Part shown: positions 8,247-53,120 of the stretch, in pieces
Layout of the letters: the number at the start of each line of letters is the position of its first letter
Position numbering within the stretch: position 1 is the first letter of the stretch
Assembly: GCA_963841545.1 (NCBI GenBank)
Contig: CAWJDE010000004.1
Span: 65,474 to 129,473 of the forward strand
From: an uncultured Chloroflexia bacterium
GTDB lineage: Bacteria; Chloroflexota; Limnocylindria; Limnocylindrales; CSP1-4
Length of the DNA: 64,000 nucleotides
Reading direction: 5' to 3'
The notes under the pieces: generated by a model
Databases searched by the model: none
What the model was told of the DNA's origin: nothing
Seen by the model: only the letters and a program-made list of their open reading frames with translations
Position numbers and translations under genes: made by a program

Positions 8247-8289
8247 CGCTGCCAGTGAACGCTTTGCGTCTCAACCGCCACTCAACCGG

Positions 8290-8585: not shown

Positions 8586-8609
8586 TATGGCGACGGCGGT
8601 CGGCGCGGC

Positions 8610-26836: not shown

Positions 26837-27081
26837 CGGCGCCCCGCCTGGCAACCTCCACTTCGAGTCATTGCCGATGCTGCACCGCGGTGCACGCACG
26901 GCCAAGTGCTGGCCGGTGGCCATTCCCGGTCATTGCGGCCTCCGGCAACCATCCCGCAACGCATCGGCCTTGCCGTCCACGGCTGGCCCCGCCCGTCCGC
27001 CGCGGCGTACCGCGGCGTACCGCGGCGCACCGTGGGCCATTCCGGCTCGTACACTGCACGTTCCGCACCAGGAGGACGAAC

Positions 27082-30469: not shown

Positions 30470-32227
30470 TCAGGCGCGGCGGCGATCCGCGAGCCGTGGC
30501 GAGAGCTCGCGCAGGCCGTCCGCAAGGTCGACCGGACGTGCGCCGAGGCGCTCGAGGAGCGCGAACACCGCGTCACGCTCGGCGTGACAGAACAGCACCA
30601 CGACCCGCGGCGCGTCGCTGCGCCCGTCGGCCGTGGCGGCCGACCCGTCTGCGCCCAGCTCGCGCTCGAGCGCCTGGATCTCGGTCTCGTAGACGGGCAC
30701 CGTCGCCGGATCCATGCCGCCCGCCCGGATCCCGGCCAGCAGCTGCTCGACGATGCTCGTGCGATCCCGGCCACGGAGGTACACGAGCGTCTCCTTGATC
30801 GCGACCCGCTGCGCCTTCTCCGCCGCGATCCGCCCGATCCCACGGAGCGAGTCGTCGGGCCGATCGCCCGCGGTGCCGATGATCGCGGTCACGGGCGCCG
30901 CCCGGCCCGCCGCCCCGCCGGCGATGGCACCTGCCACGTCGAGGATCGCCTCCGTCCCGGCCTCGTTGTGGGCGAAGTCGACGATCACGGTCCGCCGGCC
31001 CACCCGGAACAGGTTGAGGCGGCCGGGCGACAGCTCGGTCGATGGCCGGAAGCGGCGCAGGCCCTCGGCAACCTCGGCCCGGGTGGCCCCCAGCGCCCGC
31101 GCGCCGGCCGCCGCGGCGAGCGCGTTCGCGACGTTGTGGCGGGCGAGCCCGCCGAGCGCGATGGGCAGCTCGGCCTCGGCCACGAGGTCGTGCTCGACGG
31201 GTCCCTCGCACTCCACGAGGCGATCGCCCGCCACCAGGTAGGCGCGCCCGCCCGCGGCGCGGTGGCGGGCGACCGGCGGGGATCCCGGGCGGAGCGAGAA
31301 CAGCGCGACCCGCGCCCGTACGCGGCGCCCGACCGCGGCAACCAGCGGGTCGTCGGCGTTGAGCACCACCCAGCCATCGGCCCGGGTCACACGGCAGACC
31401 GTGGCCTTGACCTCGGCCAGCTCGGCGAGGGTGTGGATGCCGTGGAGGTCGAGGTGGTCGGCCGAGACGTTCGTGAACACGCTGGCGTCGTTCGACTCGT
31501 AGCCCAGCCCGCGCTGGATGAGCCCGCCGCGTGCCGTCTCGAGCACCGCGGCGTCGAGGTCGACCCGGCGCAGGATCGCGGCGGCACCGCCCGGCCCGGT
31601 CCAGTCGCCGGCGTCCACCAGCCGCTCGTCGACGAGGATCCCGTCCGAGGTCGTCGAGCCCACCCGGCGCCCGGCCCGCACCAGGATGTGCGTGATCAGG
31701 CGGGTCACGGTCGACTTGCCGTTGGTCCCGGTGATCGAGATCGTCGGGATCCGGCGGACGTCGTCGCGGATCCACGTCGGCGGCGTCGCCAGCGCCTCGC
31801 CGATCCGCGCCTCCCACCGGCCGACCAGCTGTGCCTGGGTGTTGGTCAGGCGGACCCGTCGCCCGGCCGAGACCGACCGGGTCGCGAGGTCGTAGGCGGC
31901 CTCGGCGATCGTGCGGGACCGCTCCGCGCCCTGCCACGGCCAGCTGACGATCCAGGCCCCCGCATCCGACCCGCGATGGACCTCGACGGGGCCGGCGCGC
32001 TCGCCGTGGTCGGCACGCAACCGGCGCGTCCACGCGACGAGGTCGGCGACCGCATCCGGCCAGCCGCGGGCGGGGACGGTGCGGCCGAGGTGGACGAGCG
32101 TGCGTGCGGGGGCGTCTCGCGCGCCGCGCCAGGCGCGCGTCCGCCCGACCGTGACCTCGACCTTGACCACCGGCTCGAGCCGGTAGACGTTCGGTCCCTC
32201 CAGCAGGCGGATCTCGCTGAGACGCAC
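30470..32227 (-). CDS. Cyanophycin-synthetase-like Mur ligase family protein. It has a CphA-type N-terminal domain fused directly to the Mur-ligase M and C domains, with no ATP-grasp domain
   Basis: The N-terminus 'VRLSEIRLLEGPNVYRLEPVVKVEV' parallels CphA 'RIVETRVLRGPNYWAREPVIRQV'. The Mur-ligase domain reads 'ISITGTNGKSTVTRL…TNVSADHLD'. No ATP-grasp segment is present. The start is taken at the GTG ending at 32227. Confidence 0.65.
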   Translation of the reverse strand: MRLSEIRLLEGPNVYRLEPVVKVEVTVGRTRAWRGARDAPARTLVHLGRTVPARGWPDAVADLVAWTRRLRADHGERAGPVEVHRGSDAGAWIVSWPWQGAERSRTIAEAAYDLATRSVSAGRRVRLTNTQAQLVGRWEARIGEALATPPTWIRDDVRRIPTISITGTNGKSTVTRLITHILVRAGRRVGSTTSDGILVDERLVDAGDWTGPGGAAAILRRVDLDAAVLETARGGLIQRGLGYESNDASVFTNVSADHLDLHGIHTLAELAEVKATVCRVTRADGWVVLNADDPLVAAVGRRVRARVALFSLRPGSPPVARHRAAGGRAYLVAGDRLVECEGPVEHDLVAEAELPIALGGLARHNVANALAAAAGARALGATRAEVAEGLRRFRPSTELSPGRLNLFRVGRRTVIVDFAHNEAGTEAILDVAGAIAGGAAGRAAPVTAIIGTAGDRPDDSLRGIGRIAAEKAQRVAIKETLVYLRGRDRTSIVEQLLAGIRAGGMDPATVPVYETEIQALERELGADGSAATADGRSDAPRVVVLFCHAERDAVFALLERLGARPVDLADGLRELSPRLADRRRA

Positions 32228-32374
32228 GATCAGGGGAGCATACGTGAGCGTGCGGCCCGCGGCCCCTCCGGTTGCACGGCAGCGTGACGAGCGCCCGGGA
32301 GGCGTCCTGGTCCGCGCCGGGCGCCGCCGGTCCGGGACGCCGACCGCGAACCCGGCCGCCCATACAATCGACGC

Positions 32375-33763
32375 ATGGCCGCCGAACCCCGCCCCCGTTT
32401 CACCGCCGCGGAGCTCGCGGCGCTGAGCGAGCGGATCGAGCGCGACCTTCCCGCCTATCTCGCCGACCTCGAGGACCTCGTCAACGTCGATTGCGGCAGC
32501 TACACGAAGGCCGGCGTCGACACGATCGGGCGCTGGGTCGCCCACCGTCTCGCAGCCCTGGGTGCGAGCGTCACGGCCCACCCCAACGACCTCGGGCTGG
32601 GCGACACGATCGTGGGCGAGCTCGTCGGCGCGGACCCCACCGGGCCGACGCTGCTGTGCATCGCCCACCTCGACACCGTGTTCGATCCCGGCACGGTCGC
32701 CGAGCGGCCGTTCGCGATCCGGGAGGGCATCGCCACCGGGCCCGGCGTCACCGACATGAAGAGCGGCCTGCTCACCGGCCTGTACGCCATCGTCGCCGTC
32801 AGCGAGGCGCTGGGGGCGCTGCCGCTGGCCAGGCTCGTATTCGTCGCCAACCCCGACGAGGAGATCGGCTCACCGGCGTCCACGCCGCACATCGAGCGGC
32901 TGGCCCGGGAGGCCGATGCCTGCCTGGTCCTCGAGTGCGCCCGCGCCAACGGCGACATCGTGTCCTCGCGCAAGGGCAACGTGGGCCTCGCCATCACCGT
33001 CCACGGCCGGGCGGCGCACGCGGGCATCGAGCCCGAGAAGGGCCGCAGCGCGATCCTCGAGGCGGCCCGGATCGTCACCGGGCTCCACGCGCTCAACGGC
33101 ACGCGGCCGGGCGTGACCGTCAACGCCGGCGTGATCGCCGGCGGCACGCGGCCCAACGTCGTCGCCGAGCGGTGCACCATCGAGGTCGACGTGCGCGCGG
33201 TCGCCCGCGACGCGCTGGTCGAGGTCGAGGCGGCCATCCGGGAGCTCGCGCGACCCCGGACCGCGCCCGACATCACCGTCGACGTCGTCGAGGGCGGTCG
33301 CCACTGGCCGATGGAGAAGCTCGAGCGCTCCGCCCACCTCGTCGGGCTGGCCGTCGAGCTCGCCGCCGGCCAGGGCTTCGAGCTCCACGACGCCGCGACC
33401 GGCGGCGCCTCGGACGCCAACACCACGGCCGGCCTGGGCGTGCCGACCGTCGACGGCCTGGGCCCGATCGGCGGCCTCGACCACGCCCCCGGGGAGTACC
33501 TCGAGGTTGCCTCGATCGTGCCCCGCACGATCCTCCTCGCCTCGCTCATCGCGGCGATCGGGCGCGACCCGGAGATCCGGGCGTGGCGGGCGGAGCGCCT
33601 CGCGCGCGCGGCGGCTCAGCCACCCGCGACACCCGCGACACCCGCGACACCCGCGACACCCGCGACACCCGCGACACCCGCGACACCCGCACCCGCGACA
33701 CCCGCGACACCCGCGACACCCGCGACACCGGTCAGGCCCCCGACGTCCGCGCCCGGCGCATGA
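32375..33763 (+). CDS. M20 family metallopeptidase (ArgE/DapE/CPG2-like) with a C-terminal ATP-repeat tail
   Basis: Motifs are 'LLCIAHLDTVF', 'GVTDMKSG', 'NPDEEIGSP' and a dimerisation domain. Confidence 0.8.
   Translation: MAAEPRPRFTAAELAALSERIERDLPAYLADLEDLVNVDCGSYTKAGVDTIGRWVAHRLAALGASVTAHPNDLGLGDTIVGELVGADPTGPTLLCIAHLDTVFDPGTVAERPFAIREGIATGPGVTDMKSGLLTGLYAIVAVSEALGALPLARLVFVANPDEEIGSPASTPHIERLAREADACLVLECARANGDIVSSRKGNVGLAITVHGRAAHAGIEPEKGRSAILEAARIVTGLHALNGTRPGVTVNAGVIAGGTRPNVVAERCTIEVDVRAVARDALVEVEAAIRELARPRTAPDITVDVVEGGRHWPMEKLERSAHLVGLAVELAAGQGFELHDAATGGASDANTTAGLGVPTVDGLGPIGGLDHAPGEYLEVASIVPRTILLASLIAAIGRDPEIRAWRAERLARAAAQPPATPATPATPATPATPATPATPAPATPATPATPATPVRPPTSAPGA
33625..33727 (+). 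repeat. In-frame 9-bp tandem repeat (gcgacaccc, encoding Ala-Thr-Pro), about 10 copies, at the 3' end of the M20 gene
   Basis: Six perfect copies are followed by a 6-bp remnant and four more copies. Confidence 0.8.
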
Positions 33764-41416: not shown

Positions 41417-41471
41417 GTCGCCTCCTCTGCGGCTCCCCGGCCCGCCGGTGAGCCGCCGCGAAAGCACGAAA

Positions 41472-41504
41472 CGACCCGCCGGGAGGAGGCGGGTCGCTTC
41501 GTGT
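41472..41504 (+). terminator. Candidate intrinsic terminator after gdhA: stem CGACCCGCC / GGCGGGTCG around the loop GGGAGGAG, followed by a T-containing tract
   Basis: The inverted repeat lies at 41472–41496 and is followed by 'cttcgtgt'. Confidence 0.35.
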
Positions 41505-41639
41505 CCGGCGACGGACGCGAGGACCCGCGGACGATCGTCCCGCGAAGCGGATCGGCCCCCGCCGGGTCCCCCGCGGATCCGATGCGTGCCGCTCGTCTCG
41601 CAGGTTCGGCGGCGCCAGACCGCCTGCTACCATCCGGCC

Positions 41640-42245
41640 ATGCTCGACCACGAGGAGAAGTTCCTGTTCAAGGAGGAGATCCTCCACCTCTCCGGCGCCC
41701 TCAACGACCCGGGCAGCCTGGACAACGTCGAGGACCTCCTCACCGACGTGATCACCAGCCCCCGCTTCGACTCCGAGGTGTTCACGCTGGAGCGAAGCCT
41801 CCAGGTCATGCTCGGCGCGCGGGCCGGCACCACGCTGGTCGGCCTGCTGACCGTGGCGCCCGAGGTGTTCGAGGAGGTGGCCGAGGTCCGGATCCCGCCC
41901 GAGGTCCACGAGCGGCTGGTCGCCTGGCGCGCCCGCTTCGGGCTGGCCATCGACAACGCGCTCAACTTCCTCAACAACCCCGACGGCATCCAGGGCCACA
42001 ACTTCAGCACCCAGGTCGCGCACGTCGAGGAGCGGCGGGTCCTCCAGGGCCGGCTGACGATGGTCCGCTACAACAACGAGCCACAGTTCTTCGTGGCCGA
42101 CGCGGGCGTGTTCCTGGGCCTGGTGACCGACATCATGGAGCGGCTGGGTCCATACCTCGAGCCCGACGCCGTCGATGAGGAGGCGATCACCCGCCTTCGC
42201 GAAGCGGTCCAGCTGATCGAGCGCAAGACGGCCACCCGCGACTGA
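41640..42245 (+). CDS. Hypothetical protein (201 aa)
   Basis: It is a well-formed ORF with varied composition ('MLDHEEKFLFKEEILHLSGALNDPGSL…'); no motif recognised. Confidence 0.45.
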   Translation: MLDHEEKFLFKEEILHLSGALNDPGSLDNVEDLLTDVITSPRFDSEVFTLERSLQVMLGARAGTTLVGLLTVAPEVFEEVAEVRIPPEVHERLVAWRARFGLAIDNALNFLNNPDGIQGHNFSTQVAHVEERRVLQGRLTMVRYNNEPQFFVADAGVFLGLVTDIMERLGPYLEPDAVDEEAITRLREAVQLIERKTATRD

Positions 42246-42418: not shown

Positions 42419-43579
42419 ATGCGCCAGCTGTACCTCGCGGCGACCGGCCAGAACCGCGGCAAGACGACGGCCTCGCTGGGCCTGCTCGACGGCTTCGTGC
42501 GCAAGGGGTACCGGACCGGGTTCACCAAGCCCGTCGGCCAGCGGACCGTGATCGAGGACGGCCACCCCGCGGACGAGGACGCCGTGCTGATGCGGACGAC
42601 CTTCGACCTCCCGGACCCGTATCCCGTGATGAGCCCGGTCCACATCCCGCGCGGCTTCACCAAGCGCTACATCGCCGGTGACGTGGTCGAGGACCTGGGT
42701 GCCCGCATCGTCGGGGCGCAGCGCCATTTCGCCGAGCGCGACGTGCTGCTGATCGAGGGCACCGGGCATGCCGGCGTCGGGGCGGTGATCGGGCTGTCGA
42801 ACGCGGTCGTGGCCGCGATGCTGGGGGCGCCCGCGGTGATCGTGTCGGAAGGCGGGGTGGGCCGGCCGATCGACGAGATCGTGCTCAACGCCTCGCACTT
42901 CGCCGCGCACGGCGTGCCGGTCGCGGGCGCGATCGTGAACAAGGTCCGGATCGACGAGCAGCCCGGGATCGCCCGGACGCTCGAGCGGGGCCTCGCCCGG
43001 CACGGGATCCCCCTGCTGGGCGTGCTCCCGTACCGCCCGATCCTGTCCAACCCCACGCTCGAGATGGTGCTCGAGGGGGTCCACGGCCAGGTCATCCACC
43101 CGGGGCCGGACCTCGACCGCGTGATCGCGAACGTGGCCATCGGGGCGATGGAGCCGCACCACATGCTCGCCCGGGTCGGGCCCGGGACGCTGGTGATCGT
43201 TCCCGGCGACCGCGAGGACGTGATCCTGACGATCACGACCGCGCACCTGTCCGGGCGGCCGCGGGCGGCCACGATCGACGCCCTGGTGGGGGAGACGCCC
43301 GGCGTCGTCGAGGCCGGGCCCGAAGGCGCCGCCGTGGGCCTCGTGCTGACCGGCGGCTACGTGCCACGCCCGGAGGTGGTCGAGGCGATCCGCCACGCCG
43401 GGATGTTCGCGGCGCTCGTCGACGACGACACCTACACGGTGGCCTCCGAGGTCCACGACCTGCTGGTCAAGACCCACGCCGCGGACACGGAGAAGATCGC
43501 CCTCATCAAGGCCCTGGTCTGGGAGTTCCTGGAGATCGACCGCTTCCTCGCGGCGGCAACCGAGGCCCGCCTCGCCTGA
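42419..43579 (+). CDS. Phosphotransacetylase N-terminal-domain-like protein (BioD-like P-loop plus DRTGG domain) with no PTA_PTB catalytic domain
   Basis: The P-loop 'MRQLYLAATGQNRGKTTASLGL' is of the BioD/Pta-N type. A 'GT(G)HAGVG' segment and a DRTGG-like region 'LVIVPGDREDV' follow. The ORF ends at 387 aa. Confidence 0.6.
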   Translation: MRQLYLAATGQNRGKTTASLGLLDGFVRKGYRTGFTKPVGQRTVIEDGHPADEDAVLMRTTFDLPDPYPVMSPVHIPRGFTKRYIAGDVVEDLGARIVGAQRHFAERDVLLIEGTGHAGVGAVIGLSNAVVAAMLGAPAVIVSEGGVGRPIDEIVLNASHFAAHGVPVAGAIVNKVRIDEQPGIARTLERGLARHGIPLLGVLPYRPILSNPTLEMVLEGVHGQVIHPGPDLDRVIANVAIGAMEPHHMLARVGPGTLVIVPGDREDVILTITTAHLSGRPRAATIDALVGETPGVVEAGPEGAAVGLVLTGGYVPRPEVVEAIRHAGMFAALVDDDTYTVASEVHDLLVKTHAADTEKIALIKALVWEFLEIDRFLAAATEARLA

Positions 43580-43601
43580 CTCGCGCCCCGGCGGGACGAC
43601 A

Positions 43602-44876
43602 TCACCCGTGGGGGTGGAGGAACCGCGGCAGGTACGGCAGGTTGGCCTCGATGATCGCGTCCATGAGGTCCGGCGCCACCGACGCCGGCACCAGCGGGTT
43701 CGCGATCAGGGCCCGCAGCGCGTCGCGATCGTCGCCCCGCAGCGCGGCCTCGATCACCGCCAGCTCGTACGCCTTCACGTGGCGCACCAGCCCCAGCAGC
43801 TCGGGGGCGAGCGGGTCGGTGGGCAGCGGGTGGGCGCCGTCGCGATCGATGCGCGCCGGAACCTCCACGACGTCGGTGTCCGCGAGGTTCGGGATCGTGC
43901 CGTCGTTGCGCACGTCCACGACATGGATCGCGCCGTCGCCCGTGTGGAGCGACTCGATCAATGCGGCCGCGGCTTCGCTGTAGTAGGCGCCGCCCCGCTG
44001 CTCGAGGAGCGCCGGCTTGGAGGCCAGCGTGGGATCGCGGTAGAGGTCCAGCAGCTCGCGCTCGATCGCGATCACGTCGTTCGCCCGGCTCGCCCCGTCG
44101 AGCTGCTCCCGGAGGACGTCGGCGGTCGCGTAGTAGTAGCGCAGGTAGTACGAGGGCACGGCACCCAGCGCCCGCACCAGGTCCAGCCCGAAGTGATCGT
44201 CGGCGGTCACCATCGGGTCGCCGGCGTCGAGCAGCTCGGGCAGCCGGTCGACGCCGTCGACGAGCACGGCCCGGATCCAGGAGAGGTGGTTCAGCCCGAC
44301 GTGGTCGAGCCGAACCCGCTCCGGGGACACGGCGAACCGGCGCGCGAACCCGCGCTGGAACCCGATCGCGACGTTGCACAGGCCGAGCGCGTGGTGACCC
44401 CCGTCGACCAGGGCCTGGGTGACGATCCCGACCGGGTTGGTGAAATCAAGGATCCAGGCTCCCGGCGCGCCACGTCGGCCGGCCTCCTCCGCGATCTCGA
44501 GGACCAGCGGCACGGTGCGCAGCGCCTTCGCGAAGCCGCCCGGGCCGGTCGTCTCCTGGCCGATCACGCCAAACCGGTGGGGCAGCGTCTCGTCCACCAG
44601 CCGCGCGGCCTGGCCGCCGACGCGCAGCTGGATCAGCACGTACCCGGCGCCGTCGAGCGCCTGGTCGCGGCGTCCCGTGAGCACCAGGCGACCCGGCCAG
44701 CCGGCGGCATCCAGGATGCGCGACGCGAGCCCACCGACGATCTCCAGCCGCTCCGCATCGGGGTCCTGGAGGACGAGCTCGTCGATCGGCAGCACGGTCG
44801 CCCGTCTCGCGAACCCCTCCACGAGCTCAGGGGTGTACGTGCTGCCCCCGCCGACGACCGCGACCTTGAGGCCCAT
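43602..44876 (-). CDS. Glycoside hydrolase family 4 enzyme (NAD+/Mn2+-dependent 6-phospho-glucosidase type)
   Basis: The N-terminus is 'MGLKVAVVGGGSTYTPELVEG'. The GH4 Cys-containing motif 'GLCNVAIG' and 'HLSWI' are present. Confidence 0.8.
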   Translation of the reverse strand: MGLKVAVVGGGSTYTPELVEGFARRATVLPIDELVLQDPDAERLEIVGGLASRILDAAGWPGRLVLTGRRDQALDGAGYVLIQLRVGGQAARLVDETLPHRFGVIGQETTGPGGFAKALRTVPLVLEIAEEAGRRGAPGAWILDFTNPVGIVTQALVDGGHHALGLCNVAIGFQRGFARRFAVSPERVRLDHVGLNHLSWIRAVLVDGVDRLPELLDAGDPMVTADDHFGLDLVRALGAVPSYYLRYYYATADVLREQLDGASRANDVIAIERELLDLYRDPTLASKPALLEQRGGAYYSEAAAALIESLHTGDGAIHVVDVRNDGTIPNLADTDVVEVPARIDRDGAHPLPTDPLAPELLGLVRHVKAYELAVIEAALRGDDRDALRALIANPLVPASVAPDLMDAIIEANLPYLPRFLHPHG

Positions 44877-44916
44877 CGAACCTGCACCTCGGCTGCTGCC
44901 CCGTGGCAGCGTACGC

Positions 44917-44939
44917 TTGACAGATTGCTTATAACGTTA
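44917..44939. promoter_or_regulatory. Low-GC divergent promoter/operator region with a TTGACA box and an 8-bp palindrome TAACGTTA (44932–44939) between the GH4 gene and the GntR gene
   Basis: The sequence 'gcTTGACAgattgcttaTAACGTTAgcag' is seen directly. GntR/HutC operators are short AT-rich palindromes. Confidence 0.3.
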
Positions 44940-44980
44940 GCAGCATCCTCGGCCGCAGCAAGAGGGCAACGTCGCCGCCG

Positions 44981-45793
44981 ATGGCACGCTTCCGACTCCT
45001 CGCCGGTCCGGTTCCGCTGCACCACCAGGTGTACCTGGACCTGCGCGCCGCCCTCGATGCGGGCGAGTGGCACCCCGGCGACCGGCTGCCACCCGAGCGC
45101 GAGCTCGCCGCCCGTTACGGCTGCAGCCTGATCACCGTCCGGCGAGCGCTGAGCGACCTGGCCCGCGAGCGGCGGCTGGACCGGGCGCAGGGCCGGGGCA
45201 CCTTCGTCACCCGGCCGCCGATCGATCTCGATCTGGACGGGACGATGTCGTTCACCGAGGAGCTCCAGCAGCTGGGGCACGACCCGTCGACGCGGGTGGT
45301 GACCGCGCGGACCCTGCCGGCCGAGGTCGCCGTCGCCGAGGCGCTGGAGGTCGCGGTGGGCGCCTCGGTGGTCCATCTGGAGCGGCTCCGGATGGCCGAT
45401 GGGGAGCCGCTGCTGCTCGAGCAGGTGTTCCTGCCCGAGGCCCGGTTTCCGGGGCTGCTCGCGAGCGACCTCGAGCGAGGCTCGCTGTACGAGCTGCTCA
45501 CCGAGCGCTACCGGACGCCGGTGGTGCGAGCGCGCGAGGCGCTCGAGCCGATCGCCCTGCCGGCGCGCGAGGCGCACCTGCTCGGCGTGGAGCCCGACCG
45601 CCCGGCGCTGCTGATCGAAGGGATCGCCTTCGACCGATCCGGCCGGCCGGTCGAGCTTGCGCGGTCGTTCGTCCGCGGCGACCGGACGCGCTACTACGTG
45701 GAGCGGGTCGTCGTCCGCTCCGGTCTCAGGTCCGGTGAGGCGGCCCCGGGCGCCGCCGAAGCCACCCTGGGGCGACTCTCGCGCACACCCTGA
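44981..45793 (+). CDS. GntR-family transcriptional regulator (HutC subfamily with UTRA effector domain)
   Basis: The wHTH reads 'GDRLPPERELAARYGCSLITVRRALSDLARE'. A UTRA-like C-terminal domain follows. Confidence 0.8.
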   Translation: MARFRLLAGPVPLHHQVYLDLRAALDAGEWHPGDRLPPERELAARYGCSLITVRRALSDLARERRLDRAQGRGTFVTRPPIDLDLDGTMSFTEELQQLGHDPSTRVVTARTLPAEVAVAEALEVAVGASVVHLERLRMADGEPLLLEQVFLPEARFPGLLASDLERGSLYELLTERYRTPVVRAREALEPIALPAREAHLLGVEPDRPALLIEGIAFDRSGRPVELARSFVRGDRTRYYVERVVVRSGLRSGEAAPGAAEATLGRLSRTP

Positions 45794-45838
45794 CGCCCCG
45801 CCGGCGGTCGGCGGTCCATGCCCGGGCAGGAGGAGGCC

Positions 45839-47296
45839 ATGCGAGCGTTCCGAGGCTTTGCCGCGATGGGAGTGCTGGCGATCGTCGTCGGCGCCTGCGG
45901 CGGCAGCAACCCGACGACCGCCCCGGGGACGCCGGGCGGCGCGACATCCGGGCCCGGCGCCACGCCGACGGCGGCGCCGGCGACACCCGGGAGCCAGGGC
46001 CAGACCGAGATCCGCTGGTACTGCTGCCTGGGCGGTGGCGACGCACCCGAGCAGGTCGACGTCGAGAAGCAGGTCGTCGACGAGTTCAACGCAAGCCAGG
46101 CGGACATCAAGCTCACCTTCGAGGCGGTGCCCTACGCGGGCGCCAACGACGCGCTGGCCACGGAGATCGCCTCGGGCAACGGGCCCGACATCGTGGGTCC
46201 GGTCGGGATCGGCGGTGCCAACGCCTTCCATGGGCAGTGGCTCGACCTCGCGCCGCTGATCGGCTCGACGGGCTACGACCTGTCGGGCTTCCCGGCCGAC
46301 GCGGTGAACATCTACAAGCTCGACGAGGGCCAGGTCGGCATCCCGTTCGCCATCTATCCGTCGGTCCTGTTCTACTCCAAGAGCCTGTTCGCGGAAGCCG
46401 GCTTGCAGGAGCCGCCGCACCAGTACGGCGCGAAGTACACGATGCCCGACGGCAGCCAGGTCGACTGGACGTACGACACGATCCGCGAGATCGCCAGGAT
46501 CCTGACCGTGGACAACAAGGGCCGGGACGCGACCCAGGCGGGCTTCGATCCCAAGCACATCGTCCAGTGGGGGTTCGAGCCGCAACGTGACGACCTGCGC
46601 GGCATGGGCGCCTACTTCGGCGCGGGCGCCCTGGCGGGTGGCGCGGACGGGAAGACCGCCCAGATCCCGGACGCGTGGAAGGCGGCATGGTCGTTCTGGT
46701 ACGACAGCATGTGGACCGACCACATCTCGATGACCGGTCCCGTGTTCAGCAGCCCGGACATCAACCCGGAGGACTACCCGTTCTTCACCGGCAAGATCGC
46801 GATGAGCGAGAACTTCCTGTGGTCGACGTACGGGCTCGAGGGTCTGAACGGCGACTGGGACATCGGCGTCATCCCGAGCTACAACGGGCAGGTCACCTCG
46901 GCGTTCAACGCCGACACCTTCCGCATCCTCAAGGGCACCAAGCATCCCGATCAGGCGTTCGAGGTGCTCACCTACCTGCTGGGCGACGGTGCCCCGGAGC
47001 TGCTCGCCACCTACGGCGGCATGCCCGCCCGGACGGCAGGCCAGGATGCGTTCTTCGCCGGCCAGGACGAGACGTTCACCCAGAAGCCCGACTGGCAGGT
47101 CGCGATCGACAGCATCCAGTACGCCGACAACCCCAACTTCGAGTCGTACATGCCCGCGTACAACGAGACGCTGGGGCTGGTCGGGTCGGGCGGCAAGTAC
47201 ACGACGAAGTGGCAGACCGATCAGGGCCTGGACATGAACCAGGAGGTGGAGTCGCTGCGGGCCGAGATCCAGGCGATCTGGGACAAGCAGCCGTGA
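45839..47296 (+). CDS. Sugar ABC transporter substrate-binding lipoprotein
   Basis: An RBS 'caggaggagg' precedes the ATG. The lipobox 'VVGACGGS' is present and the fold is family-1 SBP-like. Confidence 0.8.
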   Translation: MRAFRGFAAMGVLAIVVGACGGSNPTTAPGTPGGATSGPGATPTAAPATPGSQGQTEIRWYCCLGGGDAPEQVDVEKQVVDEFNASQADIKLTFEAVPYAGANDALATEIASGNGPDIVGPVGIGGANAFHGQWLDLAPLIGSTGYDLSGFPADAVNIYKLDEGQVGIPFAIYPSVLFYSKSLFAEAGLQEPPHQYGAKYTMPDGSQVDWTYDTIREIARILTVDNKGRDATQAGFDPKHIVQWGFEPQRDDLRGMGAYFGAGALAGGADGKTAQIPDAWKAAWSFWYDSMWTDHISMTGPVFSSPDINPEDYPFFTGKIAMSENFLWSTYGLEGLNGDWDIGVIPSYNGQVTSAFNADTFRILKGTKHPDQAFEVLTYLLGDGAPELLATYGGMPARTAGQDAFFAGQDETFTQKPDWQVAIDSIQYADNPNFESYMPAYNETLGLVGSGGKYTTKWQTDQGLDMNQEVESLRAEIQAIWDKQP

Positions 47297-47414
47297 GCTG
47301 CCGCGGCGCCGCCCACCGGGCGACGCCGCGGGCAAGGATGGACCGGTCCGGCCCGGCAGGACCGGACCGGTCATCCCCGGACCGAGACGGCATGAGCGTG
47401 TGGAGGCGAGCCCG

Positions 47415-48371
47415 ATGACCGCGCCCTCGACCCCGGCCGGCGGCCGGCGACGCCGATCGCCGTTCGGCCTGACCGCCCTCGGCTGGCGCGAGGCCCGCTG
47501 GGGGTACCTGTTCCTCGCCCCCTGGGTCATCGGGTTCCTGGTGTTCACCCTGGCGCCGATGGTGGCCTCGCTCGCGTTCACGTTCACCAACATCAACCTG
47601 GCCCAGGAACAGCCGCTGGCGTTCGTCGGGCTCCAGAACTGGCAGACGCTGATGGCCGATCAGCAGACCTGGGATTCACTGGCCGTCACGGTCCGCTTCG
47701 CGGTCCTCCAGCTCCCGATCGCCATCGTCCTGCCGTTCATCCTGGCGCTCGCGCTGAACAGCCGCGCGCTCAAGGGCCCGGGCGTGTTCCGGGTCCTGTT
47801 CTTCCTGCCCTACGTCATCCCGTTCGTGTCCGGCGTCCTGATCTGGCAGGGGATGCTCAACCTCGAGACCGGCTGGGTGAACGCCTTCCTCCGGTTCACG
47901 GGCATCGAGAGCCCGCCCAACTGGGTGAACGACACGACCTTCATCTACCCGGCGCTGGTGTTCATCGGCATCTGGGGCGTGGGGTCGGGGATCATCGTCA
48001 ACCTGGCCGGGCTGCGGGGCATCCCGAGCGAGCTGTACGACGCCGCCCGCATCGACGGCGCCGGCTGGTGGGGCGCGCTGCGGCACGTGACCCTGCCCAT
48101 GATGTCGCCGGTCATCTTCTACACGCTCGTGCTCGGCATCGTCGACGTGCTCCAGTACTTCCTGGTCCCGCTCGTGCTCAACAACGGGACGGGCGAGCCG
48201 GGCGGGACCACGTTCTTCTTCAACCTCTACCTGTACAAGAACTTCTTCACCTACCAGAACATGGCCTACGGCGCCACGCTGGCGTGGCTGCTGTTCATCG
48301 TGACGCTGGTCACCAGCCTGATCGTGTTCCGGACCTCACGTCGCTGGGTCTACTACGCGGGAGGCCGCTGA
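47415..48371 (+). CDS. Sugar ABC transporter permease (MalF/UgpA type)
   Basis: The EAA loop 'DAARIDGAGWWGALRHVTLP' is present. The protein has 6 TM helices. Confidence 0.8.
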   Translation: MTAPSTPAGGRRRRSPFGLTALGWREARWGYLFLAPWVIGFLVFTLAPMVASLAFTFTNINLAQEQPLAFVGLQNWQTLMADQQTWDSLAVTVRFAVLQLPIAIVLPFILALALNSRALKGPGVFRVLFFLPYVIPFVSGVLIWQGMLNLETGWVNAFLRFTGIESPPNWVNDTTFIYPALVFIGIWGVGSGIIVNLAGLRGIPSELYDAARIDGAGWWGALRHVTLPMMSPVIFYTLVLGIVDVLQYFLVPLVLNNGTGEPGGTTFFFNLYLYKNFFTYQNMAYGATLAWLLFIVTLVTSLIVFRTSRRWVYYAGGR

Positions 48372-48374
48372 GCC

Positions 48375-49478
48375 ATGAGCGCCTCGGCCCACATCCGCGC
48401 CTCCGGTGGCACCGGCGCCGCCCGGTTCGGCGGGCTCCGCCTGCGCCGACCGAGGCGGCCGCGCCGGCTCGCGACCTCGTTCACGCTGACGTTCGTCCTG
48501 GTGGTCGTGCTCGCGGCGTTCCTGTCGCCGATCCTGCGCTCGGTGATGGTGTCGCTCAAGACGCCGGCCCAGCTGTCCGAGACCAGCTCCCCGTTCCTGC
48601 CGTCGGTGCCGCAGACGTTCACCTGGCAGGGCAAGGACGTCGACGTGTACGTGGTCCCGTTCGACGGGGGCGTCCGCCAGCTCGCGCTGGTGACGCCTGG
48701 TCGTCAGCAGAGCCAGTTCGTCGACCCCGCGAACCCCGATGCCGGGCTGATCACCTGGGACGGCTCGTGGCGGACGCTCGACCGCGCCTGGGTGCTCTCG
48801 CCCGCCTGGCAGAACTACGCCGACGTGTGGGACCTGATCGACTTCCCGCGCCTGCTGTTCAACACGATCGTCATCTCGCTGATCGGCATGGTGGGCACGG
48901 TCACGTCGTGCACCCTGGTCGCCTACGGGTTCGCCCGGTTCCGGTTCCCCGGACGGTCGTTCCTGTTCACGATCCTGATCGCGACGATCTTCCTGCCGGC
49001 CGCGGTCACGATCGTGCCCACGTACACGATGTTCGCCAAGCTCGGCTGGGTGGGGACCTGGCTGCCGCTGCTGGTGCCCACGTTCTTCGCCAACGCGTGG
49101 GACGTGTTCCTGCTCCGCCAGTACCTGCTCACCATCCCGCGGGAGATGGACGAGGCCGCCTCGATCGACGGCGCCGGGCCGTTCAGGACGCTGGTCTCGG
49201 TCATCCTGCCCCAGGCCTGGCCGGTGGTGATCGCGGTCGCGATCTTCCACCTCGTCTACTCGTGGAATGACTTCTTCAACCCGCTGATCTACCTGTCCAC
49301 CAAGCCCGATCTTCAGCCGCTCGCGGTCGGCCTGCAGCGCTTCAACGGGATCCACTACCGCAACCCGGCCTACGTCCAGGCCGGGACCCTGATGACGATG
49401 GTGATCCCGGTGGTCCTGTTCCTGGTGTTCCAGAAGATCTTCGTGCGCGGCGTGGTCATCACCGGGGTGGAGAAGTGA
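48375..49478 (+). CDS. Sugar ABC transporter permease (MalG/UgpE type)
   Basis: The EAA loop 'DEAASIDGAGPFRTLVSVILP' is present. Confidence 0.8.
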   Translation: MSASAHIRASGGTGAARFGGLRLRRPRRPRRLATSFTLTFVLVVVLAAFLSPILRSVMVSLKTPAQLSETSSPFLPSVPQTFTWQGKDVDVYVVPFDGGVRQLALVTPGRQQSQFVDPANPDAGLITWDGSWRTLDRAWVLSPAWQNYADVWDLIDFPRLLFNTIVISLIGMVGTVTSCTLVAYGFARFRFPGRSFLFTILIATIFLPAAVTIVPTYTMFAKLGWVGTWLPLLVPTFFANAWDVFLLRQYLLTIPREMDEAASIDGAGPFRTLVSVILPQAWPVVIAVAIFHLVYSWNDFFNPLIYLSTKPDLQPLAVGLQRFNGIHYRNPAYVQAGTLMTMVIPVVLFLVFQKIFVRGVVITGVEK

Positions 49479-50155
49479 GCGGCGACGGTGCCGCCGGATC
49501 GGGATCGTCGTTCCGGATCGCGCTCACCTTCGACGCCGAGCATCCCGACCGGCCGACCATGCCGGGCGTCACGGCGGCGATCCTCGACGTCCTGGGCTCG
49601 CTCGCCGTGCCCGCCGCGTTCTTCGTCCAGGGCCGCTGGGCGGAGGCGGATCCGTCGGCCGCCCGCCGGATCGCGGATGACGGGCACCTGGTGGGCAACC
49701 ACTCGCATCACCACGCGCGGATGACGCTCCTCACCCGGCACGGCATCGATCGTGACGTCCGGGCGGCCGAGACGGCGATCCGGGCCGCCACCGGTGTCGA
49801 TCCGCGGCCCTGGTTCCGCTGCCCGTTCGGCGCGGGCGCGGGCAGCGCGCGGCTCATCGATCGGCTGGACGGCCTCGGCTACCGCGACGTCGGCTGGCAC
49901 GTCGACGGCCGCGACTGGTCCGGCGTCACGGCCCGCCTGCTGGCGACCCGCGTGGTTCGCGGGGTCGAGCGTCACGGGGACGGGGCCGTCGTGCTCCTCC
50001 ACGGCTGGCCCGCGCCCACGCCGCGGGCGCTGCCGTCGCTGATCGCCGAGCTGCGCCGCCAGGGCGGGGTGTTCGTGCGCCTCGACGGGCTCGACGCGCT
50101 GCCCGGAAGGCGGCCGTCGACGGCCGGAGCGCCCGGCGCCTCGGGCGCCGGATGA
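49475..50155 (+). CDS. Polysaccharide deacetylase (carbohydrate esterase family 4 / NodB-homology domain)
   Basis: The GTG overlaps the upstream stop (GTGA). Motifs are 'TFDAEH' and 'GNHSHHH'. Confidence 0.7.
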   Translation: MSGDGAAGSGSSFRIALTFDAEHPDRPTMPGVTAAILDVLGSLAVPAAFFVQGRWAEADPSAARRIADDGHLVGNHSHHHARMTLLTRHGIDRDVRAAETAIRAATGVDPRPWFRCPFGAGAGSARLIDRLDGLGYRDVGWHVDGRDWSGVTARLLATRVVRGVERHGDGAVVLLHGWPAPTPRALPSLIAELRRQGGVFVRLDGLDALPGRRPSTAGAPGASGAG

Positions 50156-51165
50156 CGATCCCGATCGTCGCCGTCGACGGCGGCAACTCCAAGACCGATG
50201 TCGCCCTGCTGCGTTCCGACGGGACGCTGCTCGCGGTGCTCCACGGGCCGACGGTCTCGCACCAGCAGATCGGGCCCGAGCAGGCCGGCCCGCGACTCGT
50301 CGCGCTCACCCGGCAGGCCGCCGAGCAGGCCGGGCTCGACCCCGGCGAGCCGCCGCTGGCCGACATCGCCGTCCTGTGCCTGGCCGGCCTGGACCTGCCG
50401 TCCGACCGCCGGCTGCTGGCCGCCACCCACGGTGCGTCGGGGCTGGCCCACGAGATCGTGCTCCGCAACGACACGCACGCCGCGTTGCGTGCCGGATCGC
50501 GCGAACCGTGGGGCGTGGCCGTCGTGCTGGGGCGCGGCATCAATGCGATCGGCGTGTCGCGGGGGGGACGCGAGGCGAGGTTCGCGGGCCTCGGGCCGAT
50601 CAGCGGCGATCGCGGCGGGGGTGGCTGGCTGGGCGTCGAAGGGCTGGGCGCCGCCGTCCGGGCCCGCGACGGCCGGGGGCCGGCGACCGTGCTCGAGCGC
50701 GTCGTGCCGGCCGCGCTGGGGTTGCGGCGCCCGATCGATGTCACGGTTGCCCTGTACCGCGGCCGGCTCTCCTCCGAGCGGCTGGACGGGCTGGCGCCGG
50801 TCGTGGTGGCCGCGGCCGCCGGCGGGGACGCCGTCGCGCTGGGCATCATGGCCACGCTCGCCGACGAGGTGGCGTCGTTCGCGATTGCCGCCATCCGGCG
50901 TTCCGGGCTCACCCGGCAGGCGGTTCCGGTCGTCCTGGCGGGTGGCGTGGCGCGGGGCGCCGACGCGCTGCTCAGGCCGCTGGTCGCCGCCCGCGTCCGG
51001 GCTGTCGCGCCGCGTGCAGACGTCCGCGTGCTCCAGGCCCCGCCGGTGCTCGGGGCAGCGCTCCTGGCGCTCGACCGGGTCCGGCCCGGCGATCCGGCGG
51101 CGAGGGAGCGGGCCACGGCCGCCCTCGCGACGATGGCCCTCGGGTCAGCCCCCCTCGGCCGCTGA
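50152..51165 (+). CDS. BadF/BadG/BcrA/BcrD-type ATPase; N-acetylglucosamine-kinase-like sugar kinase
   Basis: The ATG overlaps the upstream stop (ATGA). The motif 'IVAVDGGNSKTDVAL' is an ASKHA phosphate-1 motif. Confidence 0.7.
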   Translation: MTIPIVAVDGGNSKTDVALLRSDGTLLAVLHGPTVSHQQIGPEQAGPRLVALTRQAAEQAGLDPGEPPLADIAVLCLAGLDLPSDRRLLAATHGASGLAHEIVLRNDTHAALRAGSREPWGVAVVLGRGINAIGVSRGGREARFAGLGPISGDRGGGGWLGVEGLGAAVRARDGRGPATVLERVVPAALGLRRPIDVTVALYRGRLSSERLDGLAPVVVAAAAGGDAVALGIMATLADEVASFAIAAIRRSGLTRQAVPVVLAGGVARGADALLRPLVAARVRAVAPRADVRVLQAPPVLGAALLALDRVRPGDPAARERATAALATMALGSAPLGR

Positions 51166-52290
51166 CGCGGCCGGCTCACCGGCCGGTGGTGGCGCCGTCG
51201 GGGGATCGGCGGCCTCCGGCTCCGGCGGATACAGCTCGCGGAACACGACGTTGAGCGCGGCCGCGATCGGGACGCCGAGCAGCCCGCCCAGCACGCCGTA
51301 CACGCTCAGCCCGACCAGGACCGCGAAGATCGTGACCACCGGGTGCAGGTGGACGGCGCGGCCGATGACGATCGGCATCACCACCTGGTCCTCGACCTGG
51401 CGGATCACGAGGTAGACCACGATCACGACCACGGCGAGCCCTGCCCCGCCGTGCGCGAACGCGTCGATCGCGGCGATGCCGGTCGCGACCAGCGGCCCGA
51501 CGAGGGGGATGATCTCCAGCACGCCGGTGAGCACCGAGATCGCCAGCGCGTATGGCAGGTGGAGCACCGGGCCCAGCACGACGTACACCACGGCGGTGAC
51601 CAGAGCGATCAGCAGCAGCTGGCCGCGCAGCCACTTGCCGAGCACGACGTGGATCCGGCCGAGCAGGGCGATCGTCCGCTCCCGGTGCCGGATCGGCAGC
51701 ACCGACAGCGCCCGGTCCACGAACGATGCGCCGTCGACCAGGAAGTAGAAGGTCACGATCACCGCGAGCAGCGCCTGGAGCGCGCCCTCACCGGCCTGGC
51801 CCGCCAGATGGACGGCGTCGCCGGGTGAGGCGAACAGGCCCGCGGCGCGTGCCTGCACCTCGCGCGCGACATCGGCGATCGCGATCTGCTGGCCCGCGAC
51901 CTCGATCGTGTCGGCGCCGGCCAGCCGGCGCAACGTCGTGGCGAGCGAATCGGGACCCGCCGTGCCCAGGCTCGCGAGCTCGACGGCTACCTGCTCCGCG
52001 AGCAGCGCGAGCAGCGCGACGATGATCGCGGCGGCGACGAGGTACCCGATCGCGACGACGACGACCCGCGGCTGGCCCGTGCGCGCCTGGGCGGCGCCGA
52101 TGAGCGGGCTGAAGGCATACGCGAGCACCGCGGCGACGACGAACGGGGCGAGCACGCCGCGGGCGAGCCACAGGATGACCGCGACCGCGACGACGAGCAC
52201 GAGGAACGGCCCGTTGCCGTCGCGCCGCCAGCCTTCGCCCGTCGGTCCCGCGCCGGTCGGCCCCTCCGCCTCCCCATCGGACCCCGTCAT
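51145..52290 (-). CDS. AI-2E family transporter (PerM/UPF0118)
   Basis: The start 'MTGSDGEAEG' overlaps the panC stop (ATGA). The protein has 8 TM helices and AI-2E-like segments such as 'VLGKWLRGQLLLIAL'. Confidence 0.7.
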   Translation of the reverse strand: MTGSDGEAEGPTGAGPTGEGWRRDGNGPFLVLVVAVAVILWLARGVLAPFVVAAVLAYAFSPLIGAAQARTGQPRVVVVAIGYLVAAAIIVALLALLAEQVAVELASLGTAGPDSLATTLRRLAGADTIEVAGQQIAIADVAREVQARAAGLFASPGDAVHLAGQAGEGALQALLAVIVTFYFLVDGASFVDRALSVLPIRHRERTIALLGRIHVVLGKWLRGQLLLIALVTAVVYVVLGPVLHLPYALAISVLTGVLEIIPLVGPLVATGIAAIDAFAHGGAGLAVVVIVVYLVIRQVEDQVVMPIVIGRAVHLHPVVTIFAVLVGLSVYGVLGGLLGVPIAAALNVVFRELYPPEPEAADPPTAPPPAGEPAASAAEGG

Positions 52291-53120
52291 GCCACGAGCT
52301 CGTTGTCGATCAGGCGCACCCCCTCGATCCGCACGGCCAGCGACAGCAGCGCACGGCCGGGGACCGTCGCCAGCTCCGCCAGCGTGTCCGGATCGGCCAC
52401 CGACACGTAGTCCACCTCGGCCATCGGCTCGCCGGCGAGCACCCGGCGCATCTCGGACCGGATGGCGTCGCCGACCCGCTCGCCGCCCTCGACGCAGGCC
52501 GCCCCGGCGAGCAGCGCGCGCCGGAGGACCGGGGCCGCGGCGCGGCCGGACGGCGTCAGCCGGGCGTTGCGCGACGAGAGCGCCAGGCCGTCCGGCTCGC
52601 GGACGGTGGGACACGGGACCACCTCGGTCGGCAGCGCCAGATCGAGCGCCATTCGCTGGATCACCCGCACCTGCTGGTAGTCCTTGACCCCGAAGTAGGC
52701 ATGCTCCGCACCGACCAGCGCGAACAGGATCGCGACCACGGTGGCCACCCCGTCGAAATGGCCCGGACGGGCCGCGCCCTCGAGCGGCTCGGCGATCGCG
52801 CCCACCGCCACCGAGGTGTCGAACCCGGGCGGATACACCTCGTCGACCGACGGCGCGAACACCAGGTCCACGCCAGCGGCCTCGCAGATGGCGAGATCGC
52901 GCGCCTCGTTCCGCGGGTACTGCATGAAGTCGGCCGCCTCGCCGAACTGACGCGGGTTGACGAAGATCGACACGACCACCGTCGCGCTGTCGGCGCGTGC
53001 GCGGCCGACCAGCGAGGTGTGGCCCTCGTGCAGCCAGCCCAGGGTCGGCACCAGCCCGATCGGCCGCGGCGCGGCGGCCAGGGCGTCGCGCAGGGCCGCC
53101 CGCGTCCGAATGACGTTCAC
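52287..53120 (-). CDS. panC: Pantoate–beta-alanine ligase
   Basis: Motifs are 'VPTLGWLHEGHTSLV' (HIGH-type) and 'FGVKDYQQ'. Confidence 0.9.
   Translation of the reverse strand: MNVIRTRAALRDALAAAPRPIGLVPTLGWLHEGHTSLVGRARADSATVVVSIFVNPRQFGEAADFMQYPRNEARDLAICEAAGVDLVFAPSVDEVYPPGFDTSVAVGAIAEPLEGAARPGHFDGVATVVAILFALVGAEHAYFGVKDYQQVRVIQRMALDLALPTEVVPCPTVREPDGLALSSRNARLTPSGRAAAPVLRRALLAGAACVEGGERVGDAIRSEMRRVLAGEPMAEVDYVSVADPDTLAELATVPGRALLSLAVRIEGVRLIDNELVA

Follow-up and report, generated by a model that had tools for sequence, protein, structure and literature searches.

A divergent GH4 glycosidase and kinase locus for the predicted use of amino-sugar disaccharides without a phosphotransferase system in an uncultured Chloroflexota bacterium

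Seven genes at positions 43602-51165 of a 64-kb stretch of DNA from an uncultured Chloroflexia bacterium, hereafter called the window, appear to encode a self-contained pathway under repressor control, by which beta-1,4-linked disaccharides or short oligosaccharides of amino sugars are used without a phosphotransferase system (PTS), a reading to which we give a probability of about 0.6. The substrate is likely to be chitobiose or partly deacetylated chito-oligosaccharides. A gene for a glycosidase of glycoside hydrolase family 4 (GH4) is divergent from a plus-strand operon of six genes, which encode a GntR/HutC regulator, a solute-binding protein (SBP), two permeases of an ATP-binding cassette (ABC) importer, a deacetylase of carbohydrate esterase family 4 (CE4) and a BadF-type kinase. 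We regard the locus as the equivalent in Chloroflexota of the csnREFGHK cluster of actinomycetes, and as a PTS-free analogue of chbBCARFG of E. coli. The route of import, phosphorylation by a kinase and GH4 cleavage, proposed in the initial annotation of this DNA, is well supported, because the clade of the GH4 enzyme, the presence of a BadF homologue near its gene in 75 of 82 related loci, the absence of PTS genes, the regulator, the SBP and the operator all point to it. This route is not new, since csnREFGHK has the same core and its kinase CsnK has already been postulated to act on oligosaccharides, and placing the kinase before the glycosidase is a step that we infer.

Gene content and the glycosidase-kinase pair

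The locus extends from the stop codon of the minus-strand GH4 gene (43602) to that of the BadF-family gene (51165). All seven frames, identified by third-position GC (0.91-0.97, as against an overall G+C of about 0.74 for the window), were judged to be real, with coordinates unchanged from the initial annotation, and the Pfam matches of all seven proteins scored above the gathering cut-off, confirming the gene content claimed there (ABC import, BadF-type kinase, CE4, GntR and divergent GH4). The features are as follows.

43602-44876, minus strand: GH4 glycosidase, 424 amino acids (Pfam Glyco_hydro_4 and Glyco_hydro_4C)
44877-44980: intergenic spacer of 104 bp with the control region of the divergent GH4 gene and GntR operon
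44917-44922, plus strand: -35-like hexamer TTGACA of the GntR-operon promoter, tentative, read from the sequence
44925-44946, minus strand: 22-bp palindromic operator, predicted GntR/HutC repressor site (conserved palindrome and matrix score)
44981-45793, plus strand: GntR/HutC-family repressor, DasR/NagR-like, 270 amino acids (Pfam GntR and UTRA)
45818-47296, plus strand: CUT1-type solute-binding lipoprotein (Pfam SBP_bac_1 and SBP_bac_8)
47301-47331, plus strand: GC-rich hairpin 3' of the SBP gene, with 14-nt arms that are 93 % complementary
47400-48371, plus strand: ABC permease 1, MalF/UgpA-like (Pfam BPD_transp_1; best NCBIfam matches MalF and UgpA)
48375-49478, plus strand: ABC permease 2, MalG/UgpE-like (Pfam BPD_transp_1; best NCBIfam matches UgpE and MalG)
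49475-50155, plus strand: cytoplasmic CE4 (NodB-fold) deacetylase, proposed ChbG analogue, 226 amino acids (Pfam Polysacc_deac_1, E 2e-26)
50152-51165, plus strand: BadF/NAGK-family ASKHA sugar kinase, CsnK counterpart, 337 amino acids (Pfam BcrAD_BadFG, E 2e-29, 103.6 bits)

The GH4 protein matched the N-terminal Pfam domain of the family with 148 bits (E 3e-43, cut-off 23) and the C-terminal domain with 171 bits (E 5e-50, cut-off 24), and reached no equivalog model of NCBIfam. Its best relatives of solved structure are the Geobacillus 6-phospho-beta-glucosidases 1S6Y/5C3M (E 1e-101) and T. maritima BglT (E 1e-70). Amino acid identity is 63 % to the GH4 of the Streptomyces cluster, 44 % to 1S6Y, 38-39 % to E. 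coli ChbF and 27 % to MelA, a non-phospho alpha-galactosidase. In an alignment with BglT, ChbF and 1S6Y the NAD+-binding G-x-G-S motif is present (VVGGGSTYTPEL), and C167-N168, H197 and Y244 correspond to C162-N163, H192 and Y241 of BglT, the Cys/His metal site and the catalytic Tyr. The elements Q-L/F-R-x-GG, FTNP, C-N-V/I and an E-x-RGG-x-YS insertion are common to the window GH4, ChbF, BglT and 1S6Y and missing in MelA; the window protein has Q-L-R-V-GG, FTNP and an E-Q-RGG-A-YYS insertion. By its sequence the enzyme belongs to the 6-phospho-beta-glucosidase clade, as a predicted NAD+/Mn2+-dependent counterpart of CsnH and ChbF, and a requirement for a 6-phosphate on its substrate is predicted. 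Its earlier description as a 6-phospho-glycosidase agrees with this placement, and the remark made with it, on PTS products as the usual GH4 substrates, is true of the phospho subfamilies only.

The best solved relatives of the kinase are MurK (8ZO3, E 8e-23), the S. tokodaii hexokinase and human NAGK. Its sole NCBIfam match, NagK_SO3507, scored 69.8 bits against a cut-off of 370, so that there is no equivalog-level match to a characterised N-acetylglucosamine (GlcNAc) kinase. The ASKHA motifs DGGNSKT, GRGINA and LAGGV and a single Cys were read in the protein, and the Fe-S-bridging Cys of the activase branch is absent; these features assign it to the sugar-kinase branch of the BadF/BadG/BcrA/BcrD family, which includes NAGK, MurK and NagK_SO3507. 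The sugar-site motif GGWG of MurK is AGLG in the window kinase. GH4-linked BadF kinases, namely that at 50152-51165 and those of the related loci L036 and L040 (11277-12284) and of L065 (11245-12249), share the form (A/S)GLGxIxGD(R/W)GGG, as against GGWGxxxGDEGS in MurK, a clade-specific change which could be related to a bulkier sugar substrate. We propose that the protein phosphorylates the imported disaccharide at the 6' position, and possibly the released monomer too.

The comparison covered 82 related loci (about 1.5 Mb) across Chloroflexota and Actinomycetota, 80 of them from a scan of one genome per species (GH4 57-85 % identical) and two from contig look-ups. The nearest GH4 relatives (82-85 % identity) are found in soil metagenome-assembled genomes labelled uncultured Chloroflexia or Candidatus Limnocylindrales. 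An identical seven-gene order is present in 10 other Chloroflexota loci with GH4 identities of 62-85 % (L001, L003, L004, L008-L010, L014, L030, L035 and L039), the genomic neighbourhood of L001 differing from that of the window. Since the same order recurs in 10 other genomes, the arrangement is not due to chance.

In 75 of the 82 loci the GH4 gene has a BadF homologue at a distance of up to 8 kb, and in 52 the two are directly adjacent (within 300 bp); stop and start codons of the pair often overlap, and the loci without a nearby BadF gene are mostly truncated contigs. This near-obligate pairing fits a kinase that supplies the phosphorylated substrate of the GH4 enzyme. The initial annotation had also noted that no PTS component was present, which was found to be so throughout: no PTS, ABC ATPase, nagA, nagB or chitinase gene occurs in the window, tblastn searches with ChbA, ChbB, ChbC and ChbG were negative for the window and for all 82 loci, and none of those loci has a homologue of ChbA, ChbB, ChbC, NagE, ChbG or NagB-I. 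NagA was found in a single locus. A CE4 gene is present in 24 of the 82, half of which have a GntR regulator, the other 12 being ROK-regulated actinomycete loci without one. A double-SIS protein, the best NCBIfam match of which is the glucosamine (GlcN) 6-phosphate deaminase NagB-II (E 9e-73), is encoded in 17. In 13 loci, including L012, L017, L020, L027 and L062, the GH4-BadF pair occurs with an Opp/Dpp-type ABC system (SBP_bac_5 and OppB/C-like permeases) instead of a CUT1 system, and the importer therefore appears to be interchangeable. From this survey the GH4-kinase pair is thus the conserved core, to which transporters, regulators and amino-sugar accessory genes are added interchangeably.

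Among the transport genes, the SBP has the lipobox IVVGAC, and its true start is probably ATG 45839, behind the Shine-Dalgarno sequence GGAGGAGG. It had no match in NCBIfam, where the SBP of L040 weakly matches NgcE, and its best solved relative, the only informative one, is UspC of M. tuberculosis (E 1e-10), which binds amino sugars specifically (PMC4929945). The hairpin at 47301-47331 is probably an intercistronic stabiliser or attenuator. Permease 1 may possibly start at ATG 47415, and permease 2 has a long N-terminal extracytoplasmic loop. The two permease genes are 3 bp apart, and 4-nt overlaps at the permease-2/CE4 and CE4/kinase junctions suggest translational coupling.

The CE4 protein, which lacks a signal peptide, is similar to PdaA and to deacetylases of chito-oligosaccharides and acetyl xylan; its best solved relatives are 7Y51, the S. 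lividans acetyl xylan esterase 2CC0, ArCE4A (5LFZ) and PdaA. Motifs 2-5 are canonical (HSHHH, RCPF, DGRDW and LLH; reference H(S/T)xxH, RxPY/F, DxxDW and LxH). The enzyme apparently takes the role of ChbG, and would have a ChbG-like substrate.

The regulator and its predicted operator

The best solved relatives of the regulator are DasR (E 2e-41) and NagR/YvoA (E 1e-38), repressors of GlcNAc and chitobiose genes in Streptomyces and Bacillus, respectively, with which it shares the architecture of a winged helix-turn-helix and a UTRA domain. All six phosphate ligands of DasR (T99, R142, R144, S175, L176 and Y177) are kept in the window protein (T92, R135, R137, S168, L169 and Y170), and so are its three acidic sugar ligands (E154, E193 and E232). 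Relative to DasR, three positions differ (Y98F, R221G and Y238V); they are sugar-side residues of the effector pocket and are smaller or without a hydroxyl in the window regulator. Because of these three differences the effector may be other than plain GlcN-6-phosphate (GlcN-6P) or GlcNAc-6P, and might be larger than a hexosamine 6-phosphate. Two further differences from DasR and NagR concern the target: the site of DasR is dre, whereas the operator of the window family has the consensus TTGCTGATAACGTTATAAGCAA, and the window regulator is local to one locus as far as the window shows.

The octamer TAACGTTA at 44932-44939, which the initial annotation took as a candidate palindrome for GntR binding, is found only once in the window and forms the centre of a 22-bp palindrome at 44925-44946, which reads ATGCTGCTAACGTTATAAGCAA in the orientation of the GH4 gene. 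As a bare 8-mer the octamer is not significant (at least one match in 27 of 100 shuffles). The 22-bp site as a whole scored 40.6 bits with a matrix built from 18 other loci, the window left out; the next-best site in the window scored 1.1 bits and the maximum over 100 simulated windows was 13.2 bits. In each of these 18 loci, as in the window, the operator occurs once, 50-110 bp upstream of the GH4 start. A GntR gene was detected in 17 of them, the contig of the remaining one (L031) ending upstream. Every GntR-type locus with a detected regulator has the operator, and no ROK-type locus has it. The 22-bp palindrome, of which the octamer is part, is accordingly conserved, and we predict that it is the binding site of the GntR/HutC repressor.

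The 104-bp spacer holds the only A+T-rich palindrome of the region. The hexamer TTGACA lies 2 bp from the operator on the side of the GntR operon, with CAGCAT 18 nt downstream of it, within the operator, and it likewise adjoins the operator in L001, L007 and L010. The promoter call is tentative, since a strict sigma-70 scan of 43400-51500 found no promoter; three terminator-like matches in the same scan were all intragenic and at chance level. Repression by occlusion would fit, because the operator would cover the spacer and the -10 region. No dre-like site (ACTGGTCTAGACCACT-like) was found in the window at up to 3 mismatches. The sole match to a CsnR box at up to 2 mismatches, at 41653-41665, lies inside the unrelated open reading frame 41448-42245 and is probably due to chance.

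Proposed pathway, known systems and alternative explanations

In the proposed pathway the SBP and the two permeases would import the unphosphorylated sugar, using an ATPase encoded elsewhere. The cytoplasmic CE4 would remove the N-acetyl group of the non-reducing residue, which is the task of ChbG in E. coli, and the BadF-type kinase would use ATP to phosphorylate O6 of the same residue, the task of the PTS in E. coli; the order of these two steps could be either. The NAD+/Mn2+-dependent GH4 enzyme would then split GlcN-6P-beta-1,4-GlcNAc(GlcN) to GlcN-6P and a free hexosamine, which would be phosphorylated by the same kinase or another. Finally, a sugar phosphate of the pathway would bind the DasR/NagR-like repressor and release it from the 22-bp palindrome between the divergent promoters. 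Chitobiose or an N-acetylated disaccharide, named as substrate in the initial annotation, fits with the DasR/NagR-like pocket, the UspC-like SBP, the recurrent CE4 and NagB-II genes and the ChbG-ChbF precedent.

That precedent is the chbBCARFG operon, in which chitobiose-6'-P made by the PTS has to be deacetylated by ChbG before it is cleaved by the GH4 enzyme ChbF, which cleaves GlcN-6P glycosides and not GlcNAc-6P glycosides (PMC12791066). As in the window, a GH4 phospho-beta-glycosidase (38-39 % identical) is combined with a dedicated monodeacetylase. Uptake and phosphorylation are carried out by the PTS ChbBCA in E. coli, whereas the window has an ABC importer and an ATP-dependent kinase; the deacetylase ChbG is of the YdjC family and not CE4, and the regulator ChbR is of the AraC type and not GntR/HutC.

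The csnREFGHK cluster (SCO2657-SCO2662), known from Streptomyces and Kitasatospora and conserved in actinomycetes, encodes the ROK repressor CsnR, the ABC importer CsnEFG for GlcN oligosaccharides, the GH4 protein CsnH and the putative oligosaccharide/saccharide kinase CsnK. Like the window locus it has a CUT1 SBP, two permeases, GH4, an adjacent kinase and no PTS, and CsnK (SCO2662) has been postulated in the literature to phosphorylate the acquired GlcN oligosaccharides. Loci in Streptomyces, Kribbella, Gaiellales and Solirubrobacterales have the order ROK (with helix-turn-helix), SBP, permease 1, permease 2, GH4 and BadF, often followed by an MsiK-like ATPase. In those of csn layout from Streptomyces and Kribbella the GH4 is 57-65 % and the kinase 42-50 % identical to that of the window, and boxes of the CsnR type are present. 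The core of the CsnR box has been reported as AGG-N7-CCT, which AGGAAANTTTCCT palindromes match; exact copies of these are found upstream of GH4 or ROK genes in 13 actinomycete loci (among them L018, L022, L023, L029, L032 and L042, at about 9917-9956 or equivalent in these six, and L063, L067, L068, L073, L078 and L080). The motif Q-x2-RE-x2-AA of SCO2662 (PMC6520443) was not found in the kinases of L036 and L040, so that gene order, the description in the literature and the CsnR boxes are the basis for equating these loci with csnREFGHK. The window differs from csnREFGHK in having a DasR/NagR-like GntR regulator with a different 22-bp operator instead of CsnR and its box, a CE4 gene in the operon, GH4 divergent rather than in the operon, a Chloroflexota host, and a non-orthologous transporter (identity 21-27 % for the SBP and about 35-40 % for the permeases).

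Kinase-dependent routes of this kind are also known for neutral sugars. In the BglK routes of Klebsiella and Listeria, import by an ABC system or permease is followed by ATP-dependent 6-phosphorylation of the disaccharide and then by a phospho-beta-glucosidase, so that, as in the model for the window, a cytoplasmic disaccharide 6-kinase replaces the PTS ahead of the phospho-glycosidase. BglK is a kinase of the ROK family for neutral beta-glucosides, whereas the window kinase is of the BadF/NAGK family in an amino-sugar context. BglK has been used to make 6-phospho-glucosides (PMC10628242).

Several observations weigh against the proposed pathway. The nearest characterised BadF-family kinases (MurK, NAGK and NagK_SO3507) act on monosaccharides. 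The literature searched contained no characterised chitobiose, disaccharide or oligosaccharide kinase or phospho-beta-glucosaminidase, and no biochemical characterisation of a GH4 or BadF protein of this clade, including CsnH and CsnK. After the metal-binding Cys the window GH4 and all 10 aligned relatives have CNVA, with C-N-V kept and Pro replaced by Ala, where the characterised GH4 enzymes in the same alignment have CNVP or CNIP; CN(V/I)P is said to have been described by Hall, Pikis and Thompson in 2009 as a marker of the 6-phospho-beta-glucosidase subgroup. Motif 1 of the CE4 protein is TFDAEH as against the canonical TFDDG, and since the second Asp is not conserved, both activity and substrate of this enzyme are uncertain. 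The match of the SBP to UspC is weak (E 1e-10), for the host itself the absence of PTS and nagA genes applies to the 64-kb window, and in a preprint from another group the oligomers are presumably hydrolysed by CsnH and then phosphorylated by CsnK.

The Glu which follows in motif 1 of the CE4 protein is invariant in 13 orthologues. The form TFDxE(H/C/F) was observed in the CE4 of the window and in those of L001, L010, L016, L018, L022, L023, L029, L030, L042, L043, L048 and L057, which have A, T, V or I at the position of the metal-binding second Asp and normal motifs 2-5. These proteins may represent a distinct subfamily with a shifted metal ligand or with a different, possibly phosphorylated, substrate.

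If hydrolysis came first, the GH4 clade would have lost its phosphate requirement and would cleave the imported disaccharide, and the BadF protein would be a GlcNAc/GlcN monomer kinase like NagK or GspK, the glucosamine kinase of Vibrio which we take to be a member of the BadF family. (For Vibrio, the literature searched describes VC1280-VC1285 as a PTS with a 6-phospho-beta-glucosidase.) Such an order would agree with the monosaccharide specificity of the closest characterised kinases, with the CsnH-then-CsnK account of the preprint and with the CNVA deviation throughout the clade, and a monomer kinase is needed for the released aglycone in any model. However, the window GH4 keeps the features of ChbF, BglT and 1S6Y that are absent from MelA, and a simple monomer kinase would not be expected beside GH4 in about 90 % of the loci while nagA is present in 1 of 82. 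As far as is known from the CAZy entry for GH4, all characterised beta-specific enzymes of the family need a 6-phosphate, and we know of no precedent for a phosphate-independent beta-GH4. For BglT and GlvA the requirement for a 6-phospho substrate has been demonstrated (PMC10628242). We consider the hydrolase-first order unlikely.

The CE4 protein might instead serve as a surrogate of NagA on free GlcNAc-6P, with BadF, CE4 and NagB-II as a NagK-NagA-NagB-like trio that acts after cleavage of the disaccharide. The NagB-II, CE4 and BadF trios of actinomycetes mirror the nagK, nagB-II and nagA arrangement of Shewanella, the best models in NCBIfam are SO3507 for the kinase and SO3506 for the SIS protein, a co-located NagA is found in almost no locus, and the unusual motif 1 could reflect a different substrate. 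Against this, the nearest solved CE4 relatives act on oligo- or polysaccharides and no CE4 enzyme is known to us that has a monomeric sugar phosphate as its substrate; in the E. coli precedent deacetylation has to come before GH4 cleavage, and the window locus has CE4 but no NagB-II. This explanation appears to us quite improbable.

There is little to be expected of a neutral, possibly O-acetylated beta-glucoside (cellobiose, or acetylated xylo- or gluco-oligosaccharides) as the substrate, with a BglK-like kinase and a CE4 of the acetyl-xylan-esterase type, even though the best solved GH4 relatives are named 6-phospho-beta-glucosidases, the CE4 matches include the acetyl xylan esterase 2CC0 and routes with ABC import, BglK and a phospho-beta-glucosidase are known: the regulator is DasR/NagR-like, the nearest solved relative of the SBP binds amino sugars, 17 loci include a gene for a GlcN-6P deaminase, and the ROK-type relatives carry the CsnR boxes typical of chitosan regulons. 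Recycling of peptidoglycan fragments (GlcNAc-MurNAc, MurNAc being N-acetylmuramic acid) with a MurK-like kinase and a PgdA/PdaA-like CE4 is very improbable although MurK is the best solved kinase relative and PdaA and PgdA are among the CE4 matches, as GH4 catalysis depends on a free 3-OH of the glycone, which from the mechanism would exclude MurNAc in that position, genes for a MurQ etherase or an amidase are absent from the window and do not recur in the loci, and the csn-type relatives are tied to chitosanase regulation.

For the amino-sugar pathway itself, a more far-reaching version can be put forward, to which we give somewhat less than an even chance. In this version the BadF protein would be a true disaccharide 6'-kinase for chitobiose, GlcN-GlcNAc or (GlcN)2, an undescribed activity, and together with the CNVA-type GH4 would form a PTS-independent cassette of kinase and phospho-glucosaminidase widespread in Actinomycetota and Chloroflexota. 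The TFDxE CE4 would be a non-orthologous replacement of ChbG, possibly also of NagA, and the DasR-like repressor, with a pocket enlarged by R221G and Y238V, would sense the phosphorylated disaccharide.

The locus bears on the question of how disaccharides derived from chitosan or chitin are used inside cells without a suitable PTS; the group of the preprint describes streptomycete glucosamine metabolism as largely unknown, and CsnH and CsnK have been putative since 2011. The ABC-GH4-kinase core of csnREFGHK, CsnK as a postulated oligosaccharide kinase and the ChbG-ChbF logic are already in the literature. New are the DasR/NagR-like regulator with its 22-bp operator, the cytoplasmic CE4 with an atypical motif 1, the Chloroflexota host, and the quantitative demonstration of a near-obligate GH4-BadF pair without any PTS. 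The window and its relatives yield a testable model, with kinase and GH4 as an obligate pair, CE4 and NagB-II as optional members that distinguish acetylated from deacetylated substrates, and two interchangeable regulatory systems, ROK with the CsnR box or GntR with the new operator. If correct, the model would establish a kinase specificity not described before, carry the ChbG-ChbF logic over to bacteria other than those that use a PTS and improve the annotation of thousands of soil-metagenome genes labelled 6-phospho-beta-glucosidase, N-acetylglucosamine kinase/ATPase or peptidoglycan deacetylase; no established principle would be overturned.

Variant loci and flanking genes

The accessory genes are arranged in several ways. 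In some actinomycete metagenome-assembled genomes NagB-II and CE4 follow GH4, BadF and the ATPase directly on the same strand, and all of these appear to form one operon; in other actinomycete loci NagB-II, CE4 and BadF are divergent from GH4, a combination seen in several of the loci with AGGAAANTTTCCT palindromes. In L023 and L029 the permease genes are followed by another BadF paralogue, which is more distant. A gene for a sugar aminotransferase of the DegT/DnrJ/EryC1 type adjoins GH4 in four loci, including L006 (5802-7043) and L023 (11255-12493).

In the sister lineage represented by L002 (1759-12267) and L005, GntR, operator, GH4 and BadF are found at the chromosomal position of the window locus, between gdh and panC. 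CE4 is replaced by a SIS-domain gene and a gene for a cytoplasmic GH5-like protein of 690 amino acids, and a ROK kinase without helix-turn-helix is added directly after GH4. Identification of the GH5-like protein of L002 as a GH5_18 N-glycan beta-mannosidase like CaMan5_18 of C. acnes was considered and rejected, its best solved match being the endo-beta-mannanase 7BOB, with 6GVB not among the matches.

The window locus is flanked by housekeeping genes, namely gdh, a gene for an AAA_26/DRTGG protein, an AI-2E transporter gene, panC, panB and coaBC. Between gdh and the AAA_26/DRTGG gene, 41448-42245 (plus strand) encodes a conserved protein of 265 amino acids without Pfam match, which is syntenic in L002-L004. 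The open reading frame of the AI-2E transporter (51145-52614, minus strand) has an Arg/Gly/Pro-rich N-terminus of 130 residues without family match. It shares sequence with the 3' end of panC (52287-53120), and its convergent overlap with the kinase gene amounts to 21 nt; the start as called is probably too far upstream, the true one lying near 52200-52280. Farther away, a cyanophycin synthetase gene (26890-30036, plus strand) and a convergent second gene with a Mur-ligase domain nearby (30470-32668, minus strand) may be a CphA-type pair for cyanophycin metabolism, and a very long Lhr-type helicase of 1824 amino acids with all four Lhr winged-helix domains is encoded at 7957-13431 (plus strand).

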